Shown here: positions 3,826-35,207 of the stretch, piece after piece
How the letters are laid out: each line of letters starts with the position of its first letter
How positions within the stretch are numbered: the stretch's first letter is position 1
From: an uncultured Candidatus Saccharibacteria bacterium
GTDB taxonomy: Bacteria; Patescibacteriota; Minisyncoccia; Phycocordibacterales; CSBR16-119
Direction: 5' to 3'
Assembly (NCBI GenBank): GCA_964589975.1
Contig: CAZPVH010000001.1
Location: 23,214-87,213, forward strand
Length of the DNA stretch: 64,000 bases
Made by a program: the position numbers and the translations under genes
The notes under the pieces: generated by a model
Seen by the model: only the letters and a program-made list of their open reading frames with translations
Told to the model about the DNA's origin: nothing
The model's database searches: none

Positions 3826-5088
3826 TCATTTGCCTCCTTCAAAGATGAACGTTCTGGCGGTCTCGAGCGAGCGCATCTTGTCGAGTTCATCTTGTATGGT
3901 CTCGAACTGAAGTTCGTCGAGAAGTCCATACATTTGGGCGTCAGTTAGTACTGATCCTGTATAAACCAGACAATTGCACATGCTGTTAACATCACCCCAC
4001 GGCGAGGGTGTTTGCATGTCCTTCTCGTCACGAAGCGCTTGTTTTACCTTTTTAAACCACGGGCGCGACAGCAAACGTTTATCATTCAAGACCCCGTGCT
4101 TCAGGATTTCCAAGACCTTTTCGGGGTGTTGAGTATCCACATGAAATCCAAAATGTCCGCCGTCCGGGCTCTCGAAGCTGGTCGTGAAGCCCGAATATGC
4201 CAGAGATTTCCTATGCCTGATGTCTCGAAGTAGAGGGGAGTCAGTCATGCCATGGGTAAAAATTGAACGCATCATCCATTCTTTCACCATTCTTTCCGGT
4301 GTCTCCATCCCAGCCTTCGTTGGAAAAAGTAGCTCGACAGCCGAAGAGGCTTGCTTGGTGGGTAGGATTTTTTCGGTGCCAGCCTCCCACTTCATTTGCT
4401 TTACCACAACTGCCGTTTTCCTTACGGAAACATCTGCGTGGTATGGCAAGTCACGGAATCTTGGCTTAAGCATCCGTATCACTTCCATTTCTGAAAGCGA
4501 GGTAGACATCAAGAAGATCATGCGTGACGTACTGTAGCCCTTTCGCCTTGCGAGGAGCAGGTCCTCATGAGTCATTCCGTTTAGACTCTCGAGGTTTCCG
4601 ATGACCGGATACTGCAAAGGATGATCCTTCCAGACTTCTTGCATAATGCTTTGGAACATCAAGCGTCGCGGCTTTCCAAGTCCTTCGCTAATTTCTTCGC
4701 GAATGATCTTGCGTTCAGACTCGACGTCTTTTGCCCGCAGAAGCGGGGAAGCCACCAGATCTGTCACGACATCTACTGCTAGGGTGAGGTGACTGGTCGG
4801 GACATGAGCGTTGAATTCGGTAGTGTAGTATCCCGTGGATGCACCAATATTTCCACCAGTGTTGTCGATGAGTGTCCGAAGGTTCTTATTCCTCCCGGGG
4901 TATTTTTTCGTCCCACGAAATGGAACATGCTCGAACCAGTGGTACAGTCCGGGTTTGCCGATGAACGTATCGTCAATACTTCCAGTGAGTACCGCTAGTC
5001 GGATAGCACTGTTGTGTATCCCGTCGGGCGTTTTGTTGTAGTAAACTGGAACACCGTTTATCTCGGCGATCTGTTTAAAGTCATTCAT
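3826..5088 (-). CDS. M16-family (pitrilysin/insulinase-like) zinc peptidase
   Basis: 420 aa. Inverted zinc motif HWFEH (HxxEH) near the N-terminus; size typical of M16. Confidence 0.8.
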   Translation of the reverse strand: MNDFKQIAEINGVPVYYNKTPDGIHNSAIRLAVLTGSIDDTFIGKPGLYHWFEHVPFRGTKKYPGRNKNLRTLIDNTGGNIGASTGYYTTEFNAHVPTSHLTLAVDVVTDLVASPLLRAKDVESERKIIREEISEGLGKPRRLMFQSIMQEVWKDHPLQYPVIGNLESLNGMTHEDLLLARRKGYSTSRMIFLMSTSLSEMEVIRMLKPRFRDLPYHADVSVRKTAVVVKQMKWEAGTEKILPTKQASSAVELLFPTKAGMETPERMVKEWMMRSIFTHGMTDSPLLRDIRHRKSLAYSGFTTSFESPDGGHFGFHVDTQHPEKVLEILKHGVLNDKRLLSRPWFKKVKQALRDEKDMQTPSPWGDVNSMCNCLVYTGSVLTDAQMYGLLDELQFETIQDELDKMRSLETARTFIFEGGK

Positions 5089-7310: not shown

Positions 7311-10300
7311 TCAAATTTCTTTGACGTTGTCGATTATGATAGTGCGTTCGCCTTCGCGGATGTTTACTTTGCCTTTGATGGCAACAGTCTTGTCAGGCTG
7401 GAGCATGGCGACATATGTCTTCCAGGTTTCTGGAAAAGCGACAGCCTCGATTGTGCCCGAGAGGTCTTCGAGCTTAATAAAAGCCATCTGCTGATTTTTC
7501 TTCGTTACCAGAGTCTTTGTCGTTTGGATGATGACGGCGACAGCAACGACTTCGTCATTTCTACCGGACGTTCTAATTTTCAATAGATTCATTCCGCCCT
7601 TGTCGATTTTTTCTCGGACCTTATCAAGCGGATGTCCGGAAACGTAGAGCCCGAGGAGCTCTTTCTCCCAAGCTAGCATTACATCTTTTTCTGCTGGGGC
7701 AGAATCGGTGAGCGCGAGCTTTGATTTCGGCGCCAAGTCGCCACCAAAGAGACTTCCCTGATCTTTGTCTTGTTTTGAAAAAGATTTATTGAACTCAAGC
7801 AAGCCTTCAATGTTCGCAAGTAGATTTCCGCGTTCGCCGAAAGCGTCCATAGCGCCGGATTTAATCAGGGCTTCCAAGGATTTGCGGTTCAGGTTCTTGT
7901 GAGTGACACGCTCCAGAAAGTCCGGGAGGCTCTGGAACTTGCCGCGCTCTTTGCGCTCGGCGATGATCGCGTCGGAAATGTCTGTGCCGAGGTTCTTGAT
8001 CGTGTAGAAGCCGAAGCGGATTGCGTCTTTTTGTCCGGCCTCTTCAGCCTTGATCACGGTGAATCCGCCGAAACATTCGTTCAGATCTGGCGGCAGGACT
8101 TTTACGCCCATGCGCTCGCATTCGTGGATGATTTCGGAAACTTTTTCTACATCGCCGGACTCGGCGGTCAGGATGGCTGTCATGTATGGAACAGGGAAGT
8201 TCGCTTTCATGTAGCCGGTCTGGTAAGCAACGCGGCCGTAGCTTGCGGCGTGCGCTTTGTTGAATCCGTACGCCGCGAAAGGCTCAATAAGTAGCCAGAG
8301 CGCATCAGCTTTTTCTTTTGAGAGGCCGTTTTTTATAAAACCTGAAACTAGTTTTTCTTTCTCGGCGGCCATGACCTCAGGAATTTTTTTACCCATGGCC
8401 TTTCGGAGTTTGTCGGCTTCGAGCCAGCTGTAGCCCCCAAGATGAATGGCAATCAAGAGAACGTCATCTTGGTAAGTGATGACGCCATATGATTGAGAAA
8501 GAATTTCTTTCATCCTAGGATCGAGATATTTTATGAGGTGTGGATTTTGCTTGCGACGAATATATTCAGGAATAATCTCCATTGGGCCCGGACGATAGAG
8601 AGCCACCATGGCGTTTATGTCATCAATGATTGTTGGGCGTAGTTCCTTTAGATATCTTGTCATGCCAGAGCCATTTAGCTGGAAAAGACCTATGGTTTCT
8701 CCGCGGGCCAGCATCTCATAAGTTTTTTTGTCGTCCATTGGGATGTTTTCAATATCGACAATGACGCCTTCGATTTTTTCCACCAGTTTCACCGCGTCGG
8801 CAAGGATAGCCAAGTTTCTAATTCCCAGGAAGTCGAACTTGATGAGCCCGGCCGATTCGACGGCGTGCATGTCGTACTGCGTGATTATTTTTCCTCCCTT
8901 CGGATCGAGCTGGATCGGCGCGTAGTCGTCTACGCGTGTTGGTGAGATAACGACACCCGCAGCGTGGACGGAGATGTGGCGGGCGCAGCCTTCGATTTTT
9001 TTTGCCAAGTCGATGATTTCTTTTGTCGCTTTGTCTGTGTCGTATTGCTCTTTGAGTTCTGGAACCATCTTGAGGGCTTTGTCTATGGTCATGGCGAAGC
9101 CCTGCTTACCGAGGGGAATTAGTTTAGAAATTTTGTCGCCAACACCGTAGGGATAACCTAGAGCTCTGGCGACATCGCGGACGGATCCGCGGGCCATCAT
9201 GGTTCCAAATGTTCCGATTTGGGCGACAGCATCTTTGCCATATTTCTCTCGCGCATAATCAATCACTTCATCACGCCGATTATCGGCAAAGTCCATGTCG
9301 ATATCTGGCGCTGACGGACGCTCCGGGTTTAGGAATCGCTCGAAGGGGAGTTTGAAATGTAGTGGGTCAACATTCGTGATACCGAGGAGATATGTACATA
9401 TAGAGCCGGCGACCGATCCTCGGATGTTCGTCAATATTTTATTCTCTGAAGCGAAGCGGATCAGGTCTGCCACAATGAGTAGATAAATAGAGAAGCCTTT
9501 GTTCTTGATGATTTCAAGTTCGTACTCGATGCGTTTTTCGATCTCCTCACGACTCTCACCGTAGCGTCGTGGAATGCCCGCATAAACATATTTCCTGAGT
9601 TGTGACTCGGCGTCTTCGCCCGCCTCGAGTTCGAATTTTGGAAAAACCCATTTGCCGAGCTCAAGCTCGATGTTTACCATGTCAGCGACCTTCAAAGTAT
9701 TCTCTAGTGCTTCGGGTGTGTCAGAGAAAAACTTCAAAGCATTTTCTGGGTTAATGAAAGAGTAATCTCCGCCCATCTTCATGCCAGAGCCTTGGGTGTT
9801 GATGGCAAGTAGGGTGTTGTGTGCGTCTTTGTCGTCTTCATGGAGGTAATGAGAGTCCCATGTGGCGACGATCGGAATATTAAATTCTGCCGAGAGTTTT
9901 TTTACTCCAGCCTTTAAGACTTCGTACCCCTCCACTTCAGCGTGGCCCATGAGCTCTAAGAAAAAATTTTCTTTACCGAAGATGCTTTGGTATTTTTCGA
10001 TGATAGATTTTTGTTTGAGAGGATCGTTGGCACGGATAGCGTGAGCAAGCTCTCCGGCAGGACATCCAGAAAGACAAATAACACCTTCAGAGTATTGCCT
10101 CAGGAGCTCCTCATCCATTCGTGGTTTGTAGTAGTAGCCTTCGATGAACGACATGGAAACGAGCTTCATCAGGTTTTTATATCCCGCAATATTTTTTGCA
10201 AGAAGTGTTAGATGGTAACGCTTGGAGTCGATGTTTGATTCTTTGTCATGACGCGTACGCTCTGCGATGTAGGCTTCGACGCCGATGATCGGCTTGATGC

Positions 10301-14754: not shown

Positions 14755-16293
14755 TTGTATGTTGCTAAAATGTATCTAATGAAAAATCCTAAAAAAGGGG
14801 CGACAAAAAGGCTTGCCTATGGTGGAGTAGTTTTATTATTTATACTGGGTATGGCCGCGCTTGCAGCGTCGAGCTTTGGCCGAGATGCCTCACAACAGGC
14901 TGCAATTAGGATAAGTACAGATTCCCGCGAAACGCTCTGTACAGCGACTACCCCTCAATATTGCGGACGTATTGTTATTAGGAAAATTGTCAGCCCCTCT
15001 AGTTATCAGGACTTCTATTTCACACATAATGTCCCCGGCGTTACTTCTCCGTTAACTCTCGATGATGACGCAACTCTTTCAAGTCCTTCGGTACTAAGCA
15101 ATAGCTCTGTCCTCTTAACTCCGTTCAACGGGGTATTTTCTGTAGCAGAGATTACTGATCCTAATTACGAAACCTCTATTACTTGCACTGATCCATCTGG
15201 CGGTACAACGTCGAGCGGCTCTTCCGTGTCTATCAATATCTTGAATGGAGAGACGGTTCAGTGTGTGTTTACGAATACGAGAGTTATTGGGCAGGTGCCG
15301 ACCGGTACGGGTCCGACTACGAACCCGACGGATCCAGGAACACCTGGTACCGTCCTTACGAGCCCGAGCCCGGACAAAGTAAAAGCATGTCAATCAAATA
15401 CATGGACGCAGAGGGCAGACCTGCCTGGCATTCGAGCACAAAGTGCAGGCTTTTCGGTCGGTAGCAAAGGATATATTGGCACTGGATTTGCGTCTAGTCA
15501 GCTTACCGAATCATTTTTCCAGTATGATCCTGTCACGAACACCTGGACCCAAAAAGCGAATTTCGGAGGCGGTATTCGACACTCGGCAGTAGGTTTCTCG
15601 ATCGGCAGCATGGGTTATCTCGGTTTAGGCAAGAATGGATATGCAACAGTCCAGGATATGTGGGAGTATGATCCTGCTACCAATGTCTGGACCCAAAAGG
15701 CTGACTTTCCTCCAGGAGGACCGAGAACAGGGGCAACAGGTTTCTCTATTGGTACGAAAGGCTATGTAGGTCTCGGTAGGAATGCTTATTCAGCAACGCA
15801 GGATATGTGGGAGTATGATCCTGCTACAAATGTCTGGACGATCAAAGGATTCTTCGGTGGAGGGCCACGAATAGATCCCGTGTCCTTTTCAATCGGAAGC
15901 AAGGCTTATGTCGGTACAGGACTCGATGGAGCAACATTTAAGGATGATTTCTGGGAGTATGACCCTACCCAAGGAAGTCTCGGTACATGGACTCAAAAGG
16001 CTGATTTTGCTGGAGGAAATAGGGCTGAAGCCGCTGGATTCTCTATAGGCACCAAGGGATATGTCGGAATAGGGCGTGTAGCATATGACACCTCTGTATC
16101 TGTCAATGATTTTTGGGAGTATGATCCGGCTACCAATACCTGGACTCAAAAGGCGAATTTTGGAGGCACAGCCCGAAGTGCGGCGGTCGGTTTCTCAATC
16201 GGTTTGAGGGGCTATATGGGTACGGGTATTCCGACCGGTGTTGTAACTGCGGATGGTGGAATGTACAGAGATTTCTGGGAATATTGTCCGTAA
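14755..16293 (+). CDS. cell-surface protein: N-terminal anchor, prealbumin/CnaB-like domain, seven-bladed Kelch-type beta-propeller
   Basis: Seven repeats of about 49 aa (W.YDP.TN.WTQKA.F.GG.R....GFSIG.KGY.G.G). Start may be downstream (ATG 14770 or 14779). Confidence 0.8.
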   Translation: MYVAKMYLMKNPKKGATKRLAYGGVVLLFILGMAALAASSFGRDASQQAAIRISTDSRETLCTATTPQYCGRIVIRKIVSPSSYQDFYFTHNVPGVTSPLTLDDDATLSSPSVLSNSSVLLTPFNGVFSVAEITDPNYETSITCTDPSGGTTSSGSSVSINILNGETVQCVFTNTRVIGQVPTGTGPTTNPTDPGTPGTVLTSPSPDKVKACQSNTWTQRADLPGIRAQSAGFSVGSKGYIGTGFASSQLTESFFQYDPVTNTWTQKANFGGGIRHSAVGFSIGSMGYLGLGKNGYATVQDMWEYDPATNVWTQKADFPPGGPRTGATGFSIGTKGYVGLGRNAYSATQDMWEYDPATNVWTIKGFFGGGPRIDPVSFSIGSKAYVGTGLDGATFKDDFWEYDPTQGSLGTWTQKADFAGGNRAEAAGFSIGTKGYVGIGRVAYDTSVSVNDFWEYDPATNTWTQKANFGGTARSAAVGFSIGLRGYMGTGIPTGVVTADGGMYRDFWEYCP

Positions 16294-16302
16294 TTAAAAC
16301 AT

Positions 16303-16653
16303 ATGCAAAATATAAAAATAATAATTTTGGGAGTGCTAGTTCTGGTGGGAGTTGGATACGCCGCGTTTACAAAATTTCACAACACCGAAAAAGACGCTCC
16401 GAATCCGTATGAGAATTCTGAGATTATAGTAAATACTTTCGAGGAAGATACTGGCTGGGGCTATGACGTCATGATCGATGGCAACCTCTATGTCCATCAG
16501 CCGAACATTCCTGCTCTGGGTGGGAACAAAGGCTTCAAGACCGAAGCGGATGCTCGCGCGACAGGGAATCTCGCCACCCAAAAGATTCGTGACGGCATCA
16601 TTCCGCCGACCCTTACAGTTGAAGAACTGAAGCAAATCGGAGTTGTTCAGTAG
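16303..16653 (+). CDS. small membrane-anchored protein, DUF4907-like
   Basis: N-terminal TM, then GWGYDVMIDGNLYVHQPNIPALGGNKGF...ELK, resembling the Bacteroidetes DUF4907 family. Called from memory, not searched. Confidence 0.55.
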   Translation: MQNIKIIILGVLVLVGVGYAAFTKFHNTEKDAPNPYENSEIIVNTFEEDTGWGYDVMIDGNLYVHQPNIPALGGNKGFKTEADARATGNLATQKIRDGIIPPTLTVEELKQIGVVQ

Positions 16654-16763
16654 TCTTGATTGTTCCTTCAGACTTTACGCGGTATTATAGAGTTGCGAGT
16701 AAGTTTTTACTATCGTCGAGATGGTGAGAGGATTCGTTTTAATAAGAATTAGCGAAAAATAAA

Positions 16764-17042
16764 ATGTATAACGATCGAAATGACAGCGGAGGACAAGGTG
16801 GAGGGGGAGGATACCGAGGTGGTGGCGGAGGCGGAGGATATTCGTCAGCGCCTCGCCAGATGTTTACAGGAAATTGGACTTGTGGAACTTGCGGACAGCC
16901 AATAACAGAGCTCCCATTCGAACCAGATCCAGCGCGGCTTGGAACTCTCAAGTGCCGAGACTGCCACAAGAAATCTCGCCAGGACCGACCAGATTTCCGA
17001 AGCGGCGGCGGACAGGGCGGAGGAGGGTACCGACGTTTCTAA
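16764..17042 (+). CDS. Gly/Arg-rich (RGG/YGG) protein with central C-x2-C-x19-C-x2-C zinc ribbon
   Basis: GGGGGYRGGGGGGGY ... WTCGTCGQ...CRDCHKK ... GGGQGGGGYRR; own terminator downstream. Confidence 0.6.
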   Translation: MYNDRNDSGGQGGGGGYRGGGGGGGYSSAPRQMFTGNWTCGTCGQPITELPFEPDPARLGTLKCRDCHKKSRQDRPDFRSGGGQGGGGYRRF

Positions 17043-17057
17043 TATTCATTAAAAAGA

Positions 17058-17086
17058 AAAACTCCCGCAAGGGAGTTTTTCTTTTA
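17058..17086. terminator. bidirectional terminator (aactcccgcaagggagtt + T-runs)
   Basis: Hairpin with A-run upstream and T-run downstream. Confidence 0.65.
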
Positions 17087-17851
17087 GACAATTAGGAAGA
17101 AAAATAGCAGAGCAAGCAGTATTCGGTAAACGCCGAAAGGAATAAAATTGTTATTTTTTACATAACGCAAAAGGAATTTTATGGAAATGATGGCGACAAC
17201 GAAAGCTGCTACAAAGCCGACGGAGAGAAGTGGCAGATTCCCGTTGGAAAAAATTCCAGGATTGTTATAGATATCAAGCGCGCTGGCGCCGGCGATGGTC
17301 GGTACAGCGAGCAGGAAAGAGAATTCTACGACAGTCCTGCGTGGAATGCCCATCAGTAGACCTCCGATAATGGTTGCAGCAGAACGAGATACTCCTGGGA
17401 TGACTGCTAAAACCTGGAAGAGGCCGATAAAAAATGCTTGTGAGTAAGTGACTTCATAAATTTCTTCTTCGGGTACGTCCGGTCCGCGATATATGAGTTC
17501 AAATAGTATGAGCAGGAGACCGCCGATAAGCATCGCCCAGATAACAATGTTTTCCGAGCCGAGTAGATCGTTTTTTATTATCTTGTACAGCCCAAGGCCA
17601 ATAATGGCAGTAGGTAGGGTGCCAATAATAATCTTTTTTAAGTCAGCGGCTTTAAAGAATGAGTTAAAATAAAGTACAATGACGGCCGCGATCGCCCCAA
17701 GTTGGATAATAATCTCAAAACTTTTTAGAAAGTCGGTTTCAGGCAAGCCCAGAACTTGGCTGGTCAAGATTAAGTGTCCGGTCGAAGAGATCGGCAAAAA
17801 TTCGGTGAATCCTTCAACTATGCCAAGAATTATTGCGTCTAAGAATTCCAT
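17084..17851 (-). CDS. uppP: undecaprenyl-diphosphatase UppP/BacA
   Basis: Signature EGFTEFLPISSTGHL; polytopic; 255 aa. Confidence 0.95.
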   Translation of the reverse strand: MEFLDAIILGIVEGFTEFLPISSTGHLILTSQVLGLPETDFLKSFEIIIQLGAIAAVIVLYFNSFFKAADLKKIIIGTLPTAIIGLGLYKIIKNDLLGSENIVIWAMLIGGLLLILFELIYRGPDVPEEEIYEVTYSQAFFIGLFQVLAVIPGVSRSAATIIGGLLMGIPRRTVVEFSFLLAVPTIAGASALDIYNNPGIFSNGNLPLLSVGFVAAFVVAIISIKFLLRYVKNNNFIPFGVYRILLALLFFFLIV

Positions 17852-19892: not shown

Positions 19893-20699
19893 ATGAGAGC
19901 TCTGGTGTCGGTGTTTATGCTGGCCGTACTAACAAGTCCGGTCGGCGCGCAGAAGTTGCAGCTCGAAACTATTTTACGGCAGCCGCCGAAAGACTCCGTG
20001 CAGGTGGTGTGCGAAGTTTCCGCGCATCTCAAATTGACGCATGTGAAGCCCTCGACCATCTACAAGATGCAAACAAAGACAATGTCTTTGGTGCCAGACG
20101 AGAAGCCGAAAGACTATCGCTGTTTGCCAAAGGGTCGCATGGGTTTGCTTGTCAACACCAAAGCCGATCCTTATGCCGTTCTGCAGCCGCATATCTTTTT
20201 CGAGATCGCGGGGTTACCGACGCATTTGTCGACAAAGATGGCTGTCGGGGTGATGGACAGGAACATGGGTTTTGCCTGTGGAGTGTTCACCGGCCAGTAC
20301 ATGAGGAGGGTTGATGACTATGGCGATGTTACCTATCGCGCCAAGCAATTTGAAGCGGGATGGCATCGCGGTCTCTACCTCTTTGCCGATCAGCCTGGAT
20401 TCGTTTTCTTTTTCTCGTATGCGAGAGAGAAGACTTTCCATTATTTCGACACGTCGATCGGATGCAAAGCCGGAGAAATGTTGCGATTAGGGCCAGCGCT
20501 TTCTGGTCTGGGTGTCCAGGCGGAATTCGAGTCTTATCTCGGAGCCGGCGGGGGCCTGTCGTACCGATTGCCTAGTGGTAAATTTTCCGGCAGTATCTCG
20601 TATCTGGTTCCAGGCCTCGCTGAGATCAATCGCGAACGAGCCATTGGTCTCATTGTCGAAAACGGACTTCTGGTCCGTCTCCGAGCTCTTTGCTTCTAG
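19893..20699 (+). CDS. secreted protein, possible beta-barrel/OMP-like (high-GC3 gene)
   Basis: Signal peptide ...SPVGA|QKLQ; C-terminus ...LRALCF (terminal Phe); GC-rich with C-ending codons. Confidence 0.55.
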   Translation: MRALVSVFMLAVLTSPVGAQKLQLETILRQPPKDSVQVVCEVSAHLKLTHVKPSTIYKMQTKTMSLVPDEKPKDYRCLPKGRMGLLVNTKADPYAVLQPHIFFEIAGLPTHLSTKMAVGVMDRNMGFACGVFTGQYMRRVDDYGDVTYRAKQFEAGWHRGLYLFADQPGFVFFFSYAREKTFHYFDTSIGCKAGEMLRLGPALSGLGVQAEFESYLGAGGGLSYRLPSGKFSGSISYLVPGLAEINRERAIGLIVENGLLVRLRALCF

Positions 20700-30432: not shown

Positions 30433-30772
30433 TCCGGGTTAGGTCTGCCAGCTTCTCTTTATCAAGTCGCGCTAATACGTTAGGAGATAGACCAGGGATA
30501 CAGGAGATACAGTATCCGAGCTGTGTTTCCATGTCCATTACCAGGTAAGCGTGATTGGTAAGCTCTGCACACGGTCCATCGCATGTGGAACATGACTCGT
30601 GATCGATATTGTCGAACCAGCTGCCGTCACCTGCTACGGTCTCACATGTGTCACAGCAGCCACTCGTATAGCAGTCTTTGCAGTGGGTATCTGGACCACA
30701 AGTTTCTCCAAGTTTGGTCTTTTGGTACCAAACATAACCATCTTCGTTAGCCATGGGGGATCGTTTTTCCAT
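30428..30772 (-). CDS. cysteine-rich small protein (11 Cys in 114 aa)
   Basis: CGPDTHCKDCYTSGCCDTCE...CSTCDGPC...YCISC; no signal peptide; likely metal-binding. Confidence 0.6.
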   Translation of the reverse strand: MEKRSPMANEDGYVWYQKTKLGETCGPDTHCKDCYTSGCCDTCETVAGDGSWFDNIDHESCSTCDGPCAELTNHAYLVMDMETQLGYCISCIPGLSPNVLARLDKEKLADLTRK

Positions 30773-35103: not shown

Positions 35104-35135
35104 GAGCCAATTATATCAAAAACTGAAACTATGTG

Positions 35136-35207
35136 CTCCCCGGGTAGGGATCGAACCTACGACCTTAGAGTTAACAGCTCTCTGCTCTACCGCTGAGCTA
35201 CCGGGGA
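35136..35207 (-). tRNA. tRNA-Asn (anticodon GUU)
   Basis: Reverse complement folds as a cloverleaf: acceptor UCCCCGG/CCGGGGA, U8, D-arm GCUC..GAGC, anticodon loop CUGUUAA, T-arm GUAGG-UUCGAUC-CCUAC, discriminator G. U1:A72 as in E. coli tRNA-Asn. CCA not encoded. Confidence 0.9.

Follow-up and report, generated by a model that had tools for sequence, protein, structure and literature searches.

The DNA analysed here, a stretch of 64,000 nucleotides from an uncultured Candidatus Saccharibacteria bacterium (hereafter the window), carries on its forward strand a short gene for a free-standing four-cysteine mini-protein. The coding sequence lies at 16764..17042 (+), starts with ATG at 16764, ends with TAA at 17040-17042 and encodes a product of 92 aa, MYNDRNDSGGQGGGGGYRGGGGGGGYSSAPRQMFTGNWTCGTCGQPITELPFEPDPARLGTLKCRDCHKKSRQDRPDFRSGGGQGGGGYRRF. 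Our analysis indicates that this product is very probably a member of the x20 (Patescibacteria) subfamily of the CxxC-x17-CxxC/PF23477 domain family. The protein can be divided into three parts. The N-terminal arm (aa 1-32; 16764..16859, +) is composed of the tip MYNDRN, a variable Gly spacer (G5-Y-R-G7-Y) and a PRQ(M) lead-in. It is followed by the putative zinc-binding core (aa 33-70; 16860..16973, +) with the sequence MFTGNW-C40-GT-C43-GQPITELPFEPDPARLGTLK-C64-RD-C67-HKK, in which the Cys codons are located at 16881-16883, 16890-16892, 16953-16955 and 16962-16964 (+). The C-terminal arm (aa 71-92; 16974..17039, +) comprises the basic segment SRQDRPDFRS, the Gly spacer GGGQGGGG and the tip YRRF-COOH.

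A first-pass annotation of this DNA had already proposed the 92-aa open reading frame (ORF), and we found it at the coordinates and on the strand given there. The strings quoted from the protein, namely GGGGGYRGGGGGGGY (aa 12-26), GGGQGGGGYRR (aa 81-91), TCGTCGQ and CRDCHKK, are all present, and the putative four-Cys metal site lies between low-complexity Gly/Arg/Tyr arms as had been described. However, the Cys residues at aa 40, 43, 64 and 67 form a CxxC-x20-CxxC pattern instead of the proposed x19 spacing, and x20 is near-constant in the subfamily. The label 'RGG/YGG' given to the arms has to be revised as well. The 92-aa protein contains a single RGG, one RG, three GGY and no YGG motif, and its arms are better called poly-Gly with interspersed Tyr and Arg than canonical RGG boxes. 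The exact 92-aa sequence was absent from a collection of 15 billion proteins, in which the nearest protein cluster (P0006) is 87 % identical and carries no name.

The ORF is a real gene and its + frame is under purifying selection. This is concluded from a low ratio of non-synonymous to synonymous differences (pN/pS = 0.14-0.29) in comparison with the syntenic orthologues L001-L006, for which synonymous sites are near saturation, and from the observation that every indel underlying the differences in Gly-arm length among these orthologues is in frame. Moreover, the ATG-TAT start is invariant across the orthologues. The first-pass annotation had named a lack of frame conservation as the finding that would speak against its proposal; in L001-L006 the frame is conserved. 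It could be argued that the ORF is a spurious product of GC-rich Gly-codon repeats, or that the antisense poly-Pro ORF is the real gene, since the antisense strand of the window is without stops across the entire gene. However, the maximal antisense run without a stop differs between the orthologues, from 42 to 91 codons, whereas the + frame shows low pN/pS values (0.08-0.29), in-frame indels and thousands of homologues. In addition, the DNA coding for the Gly residues lacks a clean tandem-repeat structure and contains only a marginal 22-nt GAGGCG array (score 30). The reading as a spurious ORF or antisense gene is therefore refuted. As the antisense stop-free length is not kept in the orthologues, the poly-Pro ORF arises as a side product of the Gly codons, which agrees with the first-pass annotation. 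A recent origin of the Gly arms by slippage was also considered and rejected, as the marginal GAGGCG array was the only repeat found.

Using the non-Gly core as query, we obtained 56 homologous clusters with proteins of 50-95 aa. A motif-limited scan covering one genome per species detected relatives in 379 species genomes, and 80 of these loci were listed for further analysis. The genomes of the 80 loci are labelled as Patescibacteria lineages or plainly as 'bacterium', with L048 (Nanoarchaeota) as the sole exception. The protein at L048:2266-2808, in this bin labelled Nanoarchaeota, consists of two domains with a linker of 13 Gly between them and closely resembles the proteins of the Patescibacteria loci L033 and L054; its placement could be explained by mis-binning or lateral transfer. 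Within the 64-kb window no paralogue of the gene was found. One other CxxC-x(14-24)-CxxC pattern occurs in the window, at 30581-30655 (-) with the sequence CDTCETVAGDGSWFDNIDHESCSTC, and it is devoid of the PFxP loop of the family.

The assignment to the family is based on profile comparisons. The Pfam domain PF23477 (zf_Tbcl_2, 'probable treble clef zinc finger') matched the protein with 22.0 bits against a cut-off of 27 (E = 1.3e-4), and the NCBIfam model TIGR04272 (cxxc_cxxc_Mbark, 'CxxC-x17-CxxC domain') with 23.0 bits against a cut-off of 36 (E = 4.9e-5). Both alignments extend end to end (1-37/37) over aa 31-72, and the scores remain below the cut-offs because the x20 subfamily carries small insertions. 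Relative to the canonical x17 repeat, the window protein has NW in front of the first Cys, a one-residue insertion following CGxx and a further two residues ahead of the second pair. A comparison of the profiles by hhalign against the canonical x17 repeats resulted in a probability of 97.9 % (E = 4.1e-13, 37 columns) and aligned LPFEP of the window protein to the canonical VPFKP. Besides the two CxxC pairs, the protein has in common with PF23477/TIGR04272 the (V/L)PFxP loop, the C(R)DC second pair and the PRxM lead-in as well as the organisation as a free-standing mini-protein that has Gly/Arg arms and ends in RR[FY]. The residues W38, C40, C43, I47, E49, L50, P51, F52, P54, C64 and C67 are invariant in an alignment of 57 sequences. 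An exact 17-residue spacer was not found in the window protein, in which it is 20 residues long as in nearly all of the 80 genomic relatives. Among the family representatives, 103 domains have an x18, 49 an x20 and 32 an x17 spacer, so that spacer length varies within one homologous family. The PF23477 cut-off is passed by relatives with two domains in tandem, which are 60-76 % identical to the core.

The ORF is thus not new in kind but belongs to an already named, widespread family of free-standing zinc mini-proteins in bacteria and archaea. At least 2,475 clusters matched the x20 profile and 4,756 clusters the canonical x17 profile. An exhaustive search yielded 279 representatives at 50 % identity. 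Among the members listed in the two profile searches, the great majority are free-standing proteins with a length of 44-125 aa. Several of them are named 'CxxC-x17-CxxC domain-containing protein' or 'zinc-binding protein' in their source. The view that such a protein is rarely seen free-standing in bacteria cannot be maintained in the light of thousands of free-standing relatives, many of which possess the same Gly/Arg arms. Single-domain x20 proteins fall below both curated cut-offs and are therefore labelled 'hypothetical protein' by annotation pipelines. A literature search for the motif and for the family accessions returned no publication.

The similarity among the relatives extends beyond the finger. 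Their common layout starts with M[AY][FY]ND.. and continues with a Gly/Arg arm, the finger and a basic tail ending in RR[FY]. Canonical examples span Thermoplasmatota, DPANN archaea, Methanomassiliicoccales, Gemmatimonadales and Patescibacteria, and the architecture is illustrated by P0402 (MYDERRGGGGGGGYRDRPPREMH-finger-QKRRPKRY), P0365 (MAYGPRGGGGYGGPREMH-finger-...AGGGGGFRR) and P0367 (...finger-HRPPREGGFGGGRGGGYGGGRGGGGYGGGGGRRF). A Phe or Tyr as C-terminal residue was found in 89/111 canonical and 23/33 x20 proteins, and a [RK][FY] ending in 72/111 and 21/33, respectively. Likewise, 66 of the 111 canonical and 24 of the 33 x20 proteins have an aromatic residue at position 2 or 3, and a PRxM-like lead-in to the finger is present in 90 and 30 of them. 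Gly runs of at least three residues were observed in 28 % of the canonical and 64 % of the x20 proteins and thus seem to be optional in the family. Close orthologues of the window protein have Gly runs of anything between zero and about 12 residues, yet keep the tips MYN(D) and GGYRRF unchanged. The window protein itself is a Gly-rich extreme, since its Gly fraction outside the domain is equalled or exceeded in just 2 of 132 representatives. Its isoelectric point (pI) is 9.3 and its net charge +5, of which the C-terminal arm contributes +3. In the C-tails of the family, Arg accounts for 32 % and Gly for 14 % of the residues; the median pI is 9.2, and of the 132 representatives, 77 % are net positive outside the domain. 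In multi-copy members, the fingers are embedded in RG/RD/RS-rich linkers. The free-standing finger with Gly/Arg arms is thus the normal form of the family, and the conserved unit is the whole mini-protein and not the finger alone.

Two AlphaFold2 runs were performed, one with the full protein (57 sequences) and one with the core (130 sequences), the latter resulting in a model with a mean predicted local distance difference test score (pLDDT) of 82. In both runs a hairpin is formed by strands 34-39 and 46-50, its turn holding C40/C43, and C64/C67 are positioned at the N-terminus of a helix comprising residues 65-73. A short helical turn precedes the second Cys pair and extends over residues 55-57 in the core model and 56-61 in the full-length model. 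A knuckle combined with the N-terminus of a helix is the geometry of a treble clef, in agreement with the name of the Pfam domain. The core is therefore predicted to adopt a treble-clef topology instead of the 'classic zinc ribbon' that had been assumed, as the models place the second Cys pair at the helix N-terminus and not in a second knuckle, and as the domain aligned by Pfam and NCBIfam is of the treble-clef type. None of the five Pfam matches of the ORF at E <= 10 is a zinc-ribbon family, and in the multi-copy relatives zinc-ribbon matches (PF14599, PF13717, PF09723) were only below the cut-off or of zero stretch. In the modelled arrangement the four Cys should hold one Zn2+. The arms are both predicted to be disordered. 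In the N-terminal arm, pLDDT values were 45 for aa 1-10, 46 for aa 11-20 and 54 for aa 21-30, with residues 6-16 and 21-24 below 50; in the C-terminal arm they were 61 for aa 71-80, 47 for aa 81-90 and 55 for aa 91-92, with residues 81-88 below 50. A weak Foldseek match (PDB 9znf) had pointed to the ribosome hibernation factors SriA/SriB. This lead was rejected, as the Sri proteins are grouped with CBS-domain proteins in the passages that describe them (PMC13454478).

Similar proteins have been described for Methanosarcina mazei, in which eight small CxxC-x17-CxxC proteins were detected with high confidence by proteomics (PMC12704099). Two of them, A00184 and A01980, were purified and shown to bind zinc by ICP-MS (mass spectrometry with an inductively coupled plasma), and the authors speculated on a role of these proteins in transcription (PMC12704099). 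We translated the cloning primers of that study, which give the termini only, and read MAFNDRN... at the N-terminus and ...RENRRY or ...PRENRY at the C-terminus of A00184/A01980 (PMC12704099). The tips MAFNDRN and RRY/NRY of the archaeal proteins thus correspond to MYNDRN (16764-16784) and RRF (17028-17039) of the window protein. The matching termini suggest that the likeness covers the whole protein across the bacterial-archaeal divide, with the Gly spacers varying. The M. mazei proteins differ in being archaeal, in their x17 spacer and in the presence of eight paralogues per genome; moreover, zinc was measured there and is predicted for the window protein. On the Methanomassiliicoccales contig L081 we observed two genes for PF23477 mini-proteins (4001-4180 and 7404-7604), 3.2 kb apart, which fits the multi-paralogy of M. 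mazei.

The arrangement of a finger between flexible arms is also known from the eukaryotic FET proteins (FUS/EWS/TAF15), in which a RanBP2-type Cys4 zinc finger lies between RGG regions, that is, between disordered arms rich in Gly, Arg and Tyr. The FET finger shares with the window protein a first knuckle of the form G-[ND]-W-x-C-x-x-C, and the C-terminus is basic and aromatic in both. However, the window protein had no match to PF00641 at E <= 10, its spacer is x20 compared to x10 in FET proteins, and its second Cys pair is located on a helix and not in a second knuckle. Furthermore, its single RGG differs from the multiple RGG/RG motifs of the FET arms. We therefore regard the resemblance as an analogy of layout and not as homology. 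The haloarchaeal zinc-finger mu-proteins (HVO_2753, HVO_0758), which have been named as comparators of the M. mazei proteins (PMC12704099), are likewise free-standing Cys4-Zn proteins of less than 100 aa, but they possess C(P)xCG knuckles typical of zinc ribbons and no sequence relationship to the window protein was detected. For the ribosomal protein eL43/L37Ae, similarity was confined to the first-knuckle region (GxWxCxxCG; E = 0.2-2), without significant similarity over the full length.

The gene forms an independent transcription unit. Upstream of it, a promoter-like element at 16660..16688 (+) consists of a -35-like TTGTTC (16660-16665), a 17-nt spacer and a -10-like TATTAT (16683-16688), and a further TTGATT (16656-16661) overlaps the -35-like hexamer. 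An alignment with six orthologous loci revealed a conserved pair TTGAC(T)-17 nt-TAT(c)AT/GATAAT in this region. About 120 nt 5' of the gene are conserved among the orthologues despite a differing upstream gene, which is DUF4907 in the window and in L003 and DUF2914 in the other orthologous loci. A consensus promoter scanner made no call for the element at 16660..16688; judged by its motifs and their conservation, it probably serves as the promoter. The following A/T-rich leader of about 75 nt (16689..16763, +) contains the short blocks GCGAGT, GTCGA, TTCGT and AATAAATT, which are conserved in seven orthologous loci. There is no obvious Shine-Dalgarno sequence in the leader before the ATG. RNAalifold predicted 0 conserved pairs for the leader, and Rfam yielded no leader family and only generic matches to the terminator hairpin; a structured 5' leader or riboswitch was therefore rejected.

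Downstream of the gene, a bidirectional intrinsic terminator at 17052..17085 (both strands) forms a 15-bp stem with a CTCCC/GGGAG core, a GCAA loop and flanking A- and T-tracts. The free energy of the hairpin is -21.3 kcal/mol (z = -8.0), and none of 200 shuffled sequences folded as well. Pairing between its A and T tracts caused the consensus scanner to overlook this terminator. The hairpin shares nucleotides with the stop codon of uppP, the convergent gene (17084..17851, -; PF02673 BacA), and it is therefore a terminator shared by both genes. A comparable hairpin with a T-run was found within 80 nt past the stop in 71/78 family loci but only in 30/397 random 80-mers. Accordingly, the gene is typically a self-contained transcription unit, and the first-pass annotation was right in describing it as monocistronic with its own terminator. 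The mini-protein is probably strongly expressed.

The neighbouring genes in the window, namely those for glutamate dehydrogenase, a DUF2914 membrane protein, a Kelch propeller, DUF4907, UppP, an FN3/peptidoglycan-binding protein and pyruvate kinase, are mutually unrelated. Conservation beside uppP was a check suggested by the first-pass annotation. We found uppP in the flanks of about 10-16 of the 80 loci, mainly in the closest relatives, and directly adjoining only in these (L001-L006) and a few others. A functional link to uppP was therefore rejected in favour of an inherited gene order. An unbiased census of the 80 loci identified thiol-redox genes as the most frequent neighbours, with thioredoxin reductase (TrxR)-like genes in 21/80, glutaredoxin (Grx)-like genes in 12 and DsbA-like genes in 12 loci. 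In about 22 of the 80 loci, the genes are co-oriented in the order DsbA-like, zinc protein, Grx-like and TrxR with gaps of 80-880 nt. This arrangement is confined to one sub-clade among L010-L079 (e.g. L064:5980-6162, L017, L031, L061), in which the TrxR proteins are 49-70 % identical. No match to TrxR, Grx or DsbA was found in the 64 kb of the window, thiol-redox neighbours were absent from three archaeal or other canonical loci examined, and the archaeal gene neighbourhoods revealed no recurrent partner. Fusions are rare. The finger was found at the C-terminus of a TIR domain (P0286), of an extracytoplasmic function (ECF) sigma factor (Sigma70_r2/r4; P0302), of a membrane-anchored protein (P0290) and of an unassigned domain of about 210 aa (P0280). 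An origin from a defence system or phage was rejected, as PADLOC gave no matches and PHROGs only insignificant ones (E >= 0.03).

With regard to function, we infer, tentatively and with somewhat less than even confidence, that the mini-protein binds nucleic acid, most likely RNA, via basic-aromatic tips carried on Gly spacers. Cys40/43 in the hairpin turn and Cys64/67 at the start of the helix would hold one Zn2+, and the core displays the invariant ITELPFxP loop. The Gly runs would function as spacers of freely variable length that tether the conserved tips to the core. The net-basic, aromatic-tipped tails would bind nucleic acid with little preference for particular sequences, and the zinc core would offer a second, rigid surface for contact. 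As a small protein expressed from its own unit, it may then be an RNA-binding factor or one of the chaperone type. RNA or another nucleic acid is considered the likeliest ligand because the protein is positively charged, has an Arg/Gly/aromatic composition and has multi-copy relatives with RG-rich linkers. The spacer-and-tip model is proposed because the tips are kept while the Gly-run length varies, both in the close orthologues and in the family. The RNA-binding role raised by the first-pass annotation is thus plausible. Nevertheless, several observations weigh against it. No RNA-binding assay has been reported for any member of the PF23477 family, and among the family members none was found to be fused to a known RNA-binding, helicase or cold-shock domain. 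Only one RGG motif is present, and the acidic/hydrophobic ELPFEPD loop, which is invariant, resembles a protein-binding surface more than one for RNA. The passages on the M. acetivorans ribosome structure do not mention such a protein (PMC13454478). No solved structure was significantly similar, so that the fold class is a predicted one, and synteny gives no functional handle in either bacteria or archaea.

Alternatively, the mini-protein could be an adaptor or regulator that docks on other proteins. In that case the tips and the ELPFxP loop would contact a partner from transcription or translation, for example RNA polymerase, a sigma factor or a ribosomal factor. The Gly runs would serve as tethers, and any binding of nucleic acid would be a side effect. 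The strict conservation of the acidic/hydrophobic loop (I47, E49, L50, P51, F52 and P54 are invariant) and of the terminal aromatic residues is consistent with docking, as are the family domain on the C-terminus of the ECF sigma factor and the transcription role suggested by the M. mazei authors (PMC12704099). Several members are even named 'DNA-directed RNA polymerase' in their source. However, these names were probably carried over from the unrelated RpoP/Rpb12 zinc ribbons, the sigma factor fusion is a single case, and no conserved neighbour encodes a candidate partner. We consider this possibility rather unlikely. The gene order DsbA-like, zinc protein, Grx-like and TrxR could also hint at a redox switch based on thiols and zinc, or at a client of the thioredoxin system, with a Cys4-Zn site at which oxidative stress would trigger zinc release and disulfide formation. 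In line with this, dehydro-Cys forms of the M. mazei homologues were observed by top-down proteomics, but the authors reinterpreted the signal as zinc coordination (PMC12704099). Moreover, the linkage does not extend beyond one sub-clade, and neither the window nor the examined archaeal loci have it. As the gene has its own terminator before the downstream gene in 71/78 loci, co-transcription with Grx/TrxR is unlikely. A redox function therefore appears improbable.

We give slightly less credence still to a ribosome-associated or ribosomal-protein-like factor of the reduced-genome lineages, that is, the candidate phyla radiation (CPR) and DPANN. The protein would be suited to such a role, as it is small, basic and zinc-binding by homology, has disordered extensions and its own (probably strong) expression, and is widespread in CPR and DPANN; the GxWxCxxCG knuckle also weakly resembles eL43/L37Ae. 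Yet the match to eL43 covers one knuckle only and is not significant, and in the loci examined the gene was never located in a ribosomal-protein operon. Furthermore, high-resolution work on the Methanosarcina ribosome identified the new ribosomal protein aS36 and the Sri factors, in passages that do not include the present family (PMC13454478). The Gly runs with Cys and Ser close by could also point to a Gly-rich precursor of ribosomally synthesized and post-translationally modified peptides (RiPPs) of the type of microcin B17 or the thiazole/oxazole-modified microcins (TOMM), and a weak match to the NCBIfam model microcin_B17 (NF041037) was indeed obtained. This match reached 9.7 bits against a cut-off of 70 (E = 1.3), no genes for a cyclodehydratase, dehydrogenase or exporter are located nearby, and the Cys residues lie within the conserved folded domain and not in the Gly runs. 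A RiPP precursor is thus effectively refuted.

The ORF alone adds little, as the domain is already represented in Pfam and NCBIfam and zinc binding is known for archaeal members. What our analysis adds is that the curated thresholds miss the whole single-domain x20 subfamily of Patescibacteria, that the entire mini-protein with fixed tips and variable Gly tethers is conserved as one unit, and that its synteny is without functional clue. Since the family comprises thousands of bacterial and archaeal clusters, with robust protein detection in Methanosarcina, one functional assignment would annotate very many 'hypothetical' genes. Beyond RNA binding by the window protein itself, it is a speculative idea, which we regard as unlikely on present data, that the PF23477 mini-proteins are ancient, abundant, cross-domain RNA-binding or condensate factors, a prokaryotic counterpart of RGG-ZnF-RGG proteins, or else an unrecognised accessory factor of translation or transcription. 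If this were true, the class would have been especially retained in CPR/DPANN, the M[AY][FY]ND.. and RR[FY]-COOH tips would be its working ends, and the Gly runs would be tunable tethers.

Some further features of the window were noted. Between the DUF2914 gene and the zinc-protein gene, the region 14755-16653 (+) encodes a 512-aa Kelch propeller with a SpaA-like prealbumin domain and a 116-aa DUF4907 protein. This pair is present in the window and in L003 only, whereas DUF2914 lies directly upstream of the zinc-protein gene in L001, L002, L004, L005 and L006; the pair looks like a two-gene insertion. The only RNA gene detected by ARAGORN or Rfam in the 64-kb window is that for tRNA-Asn (GTT) at 35135-35207 (-). 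Finally, an ORF of 268 aa at 19893-20699 (+), which has no Pfam match, is 31-33 % identical to proteins encoded near the same neighbourhood in L001, L003 and L004.

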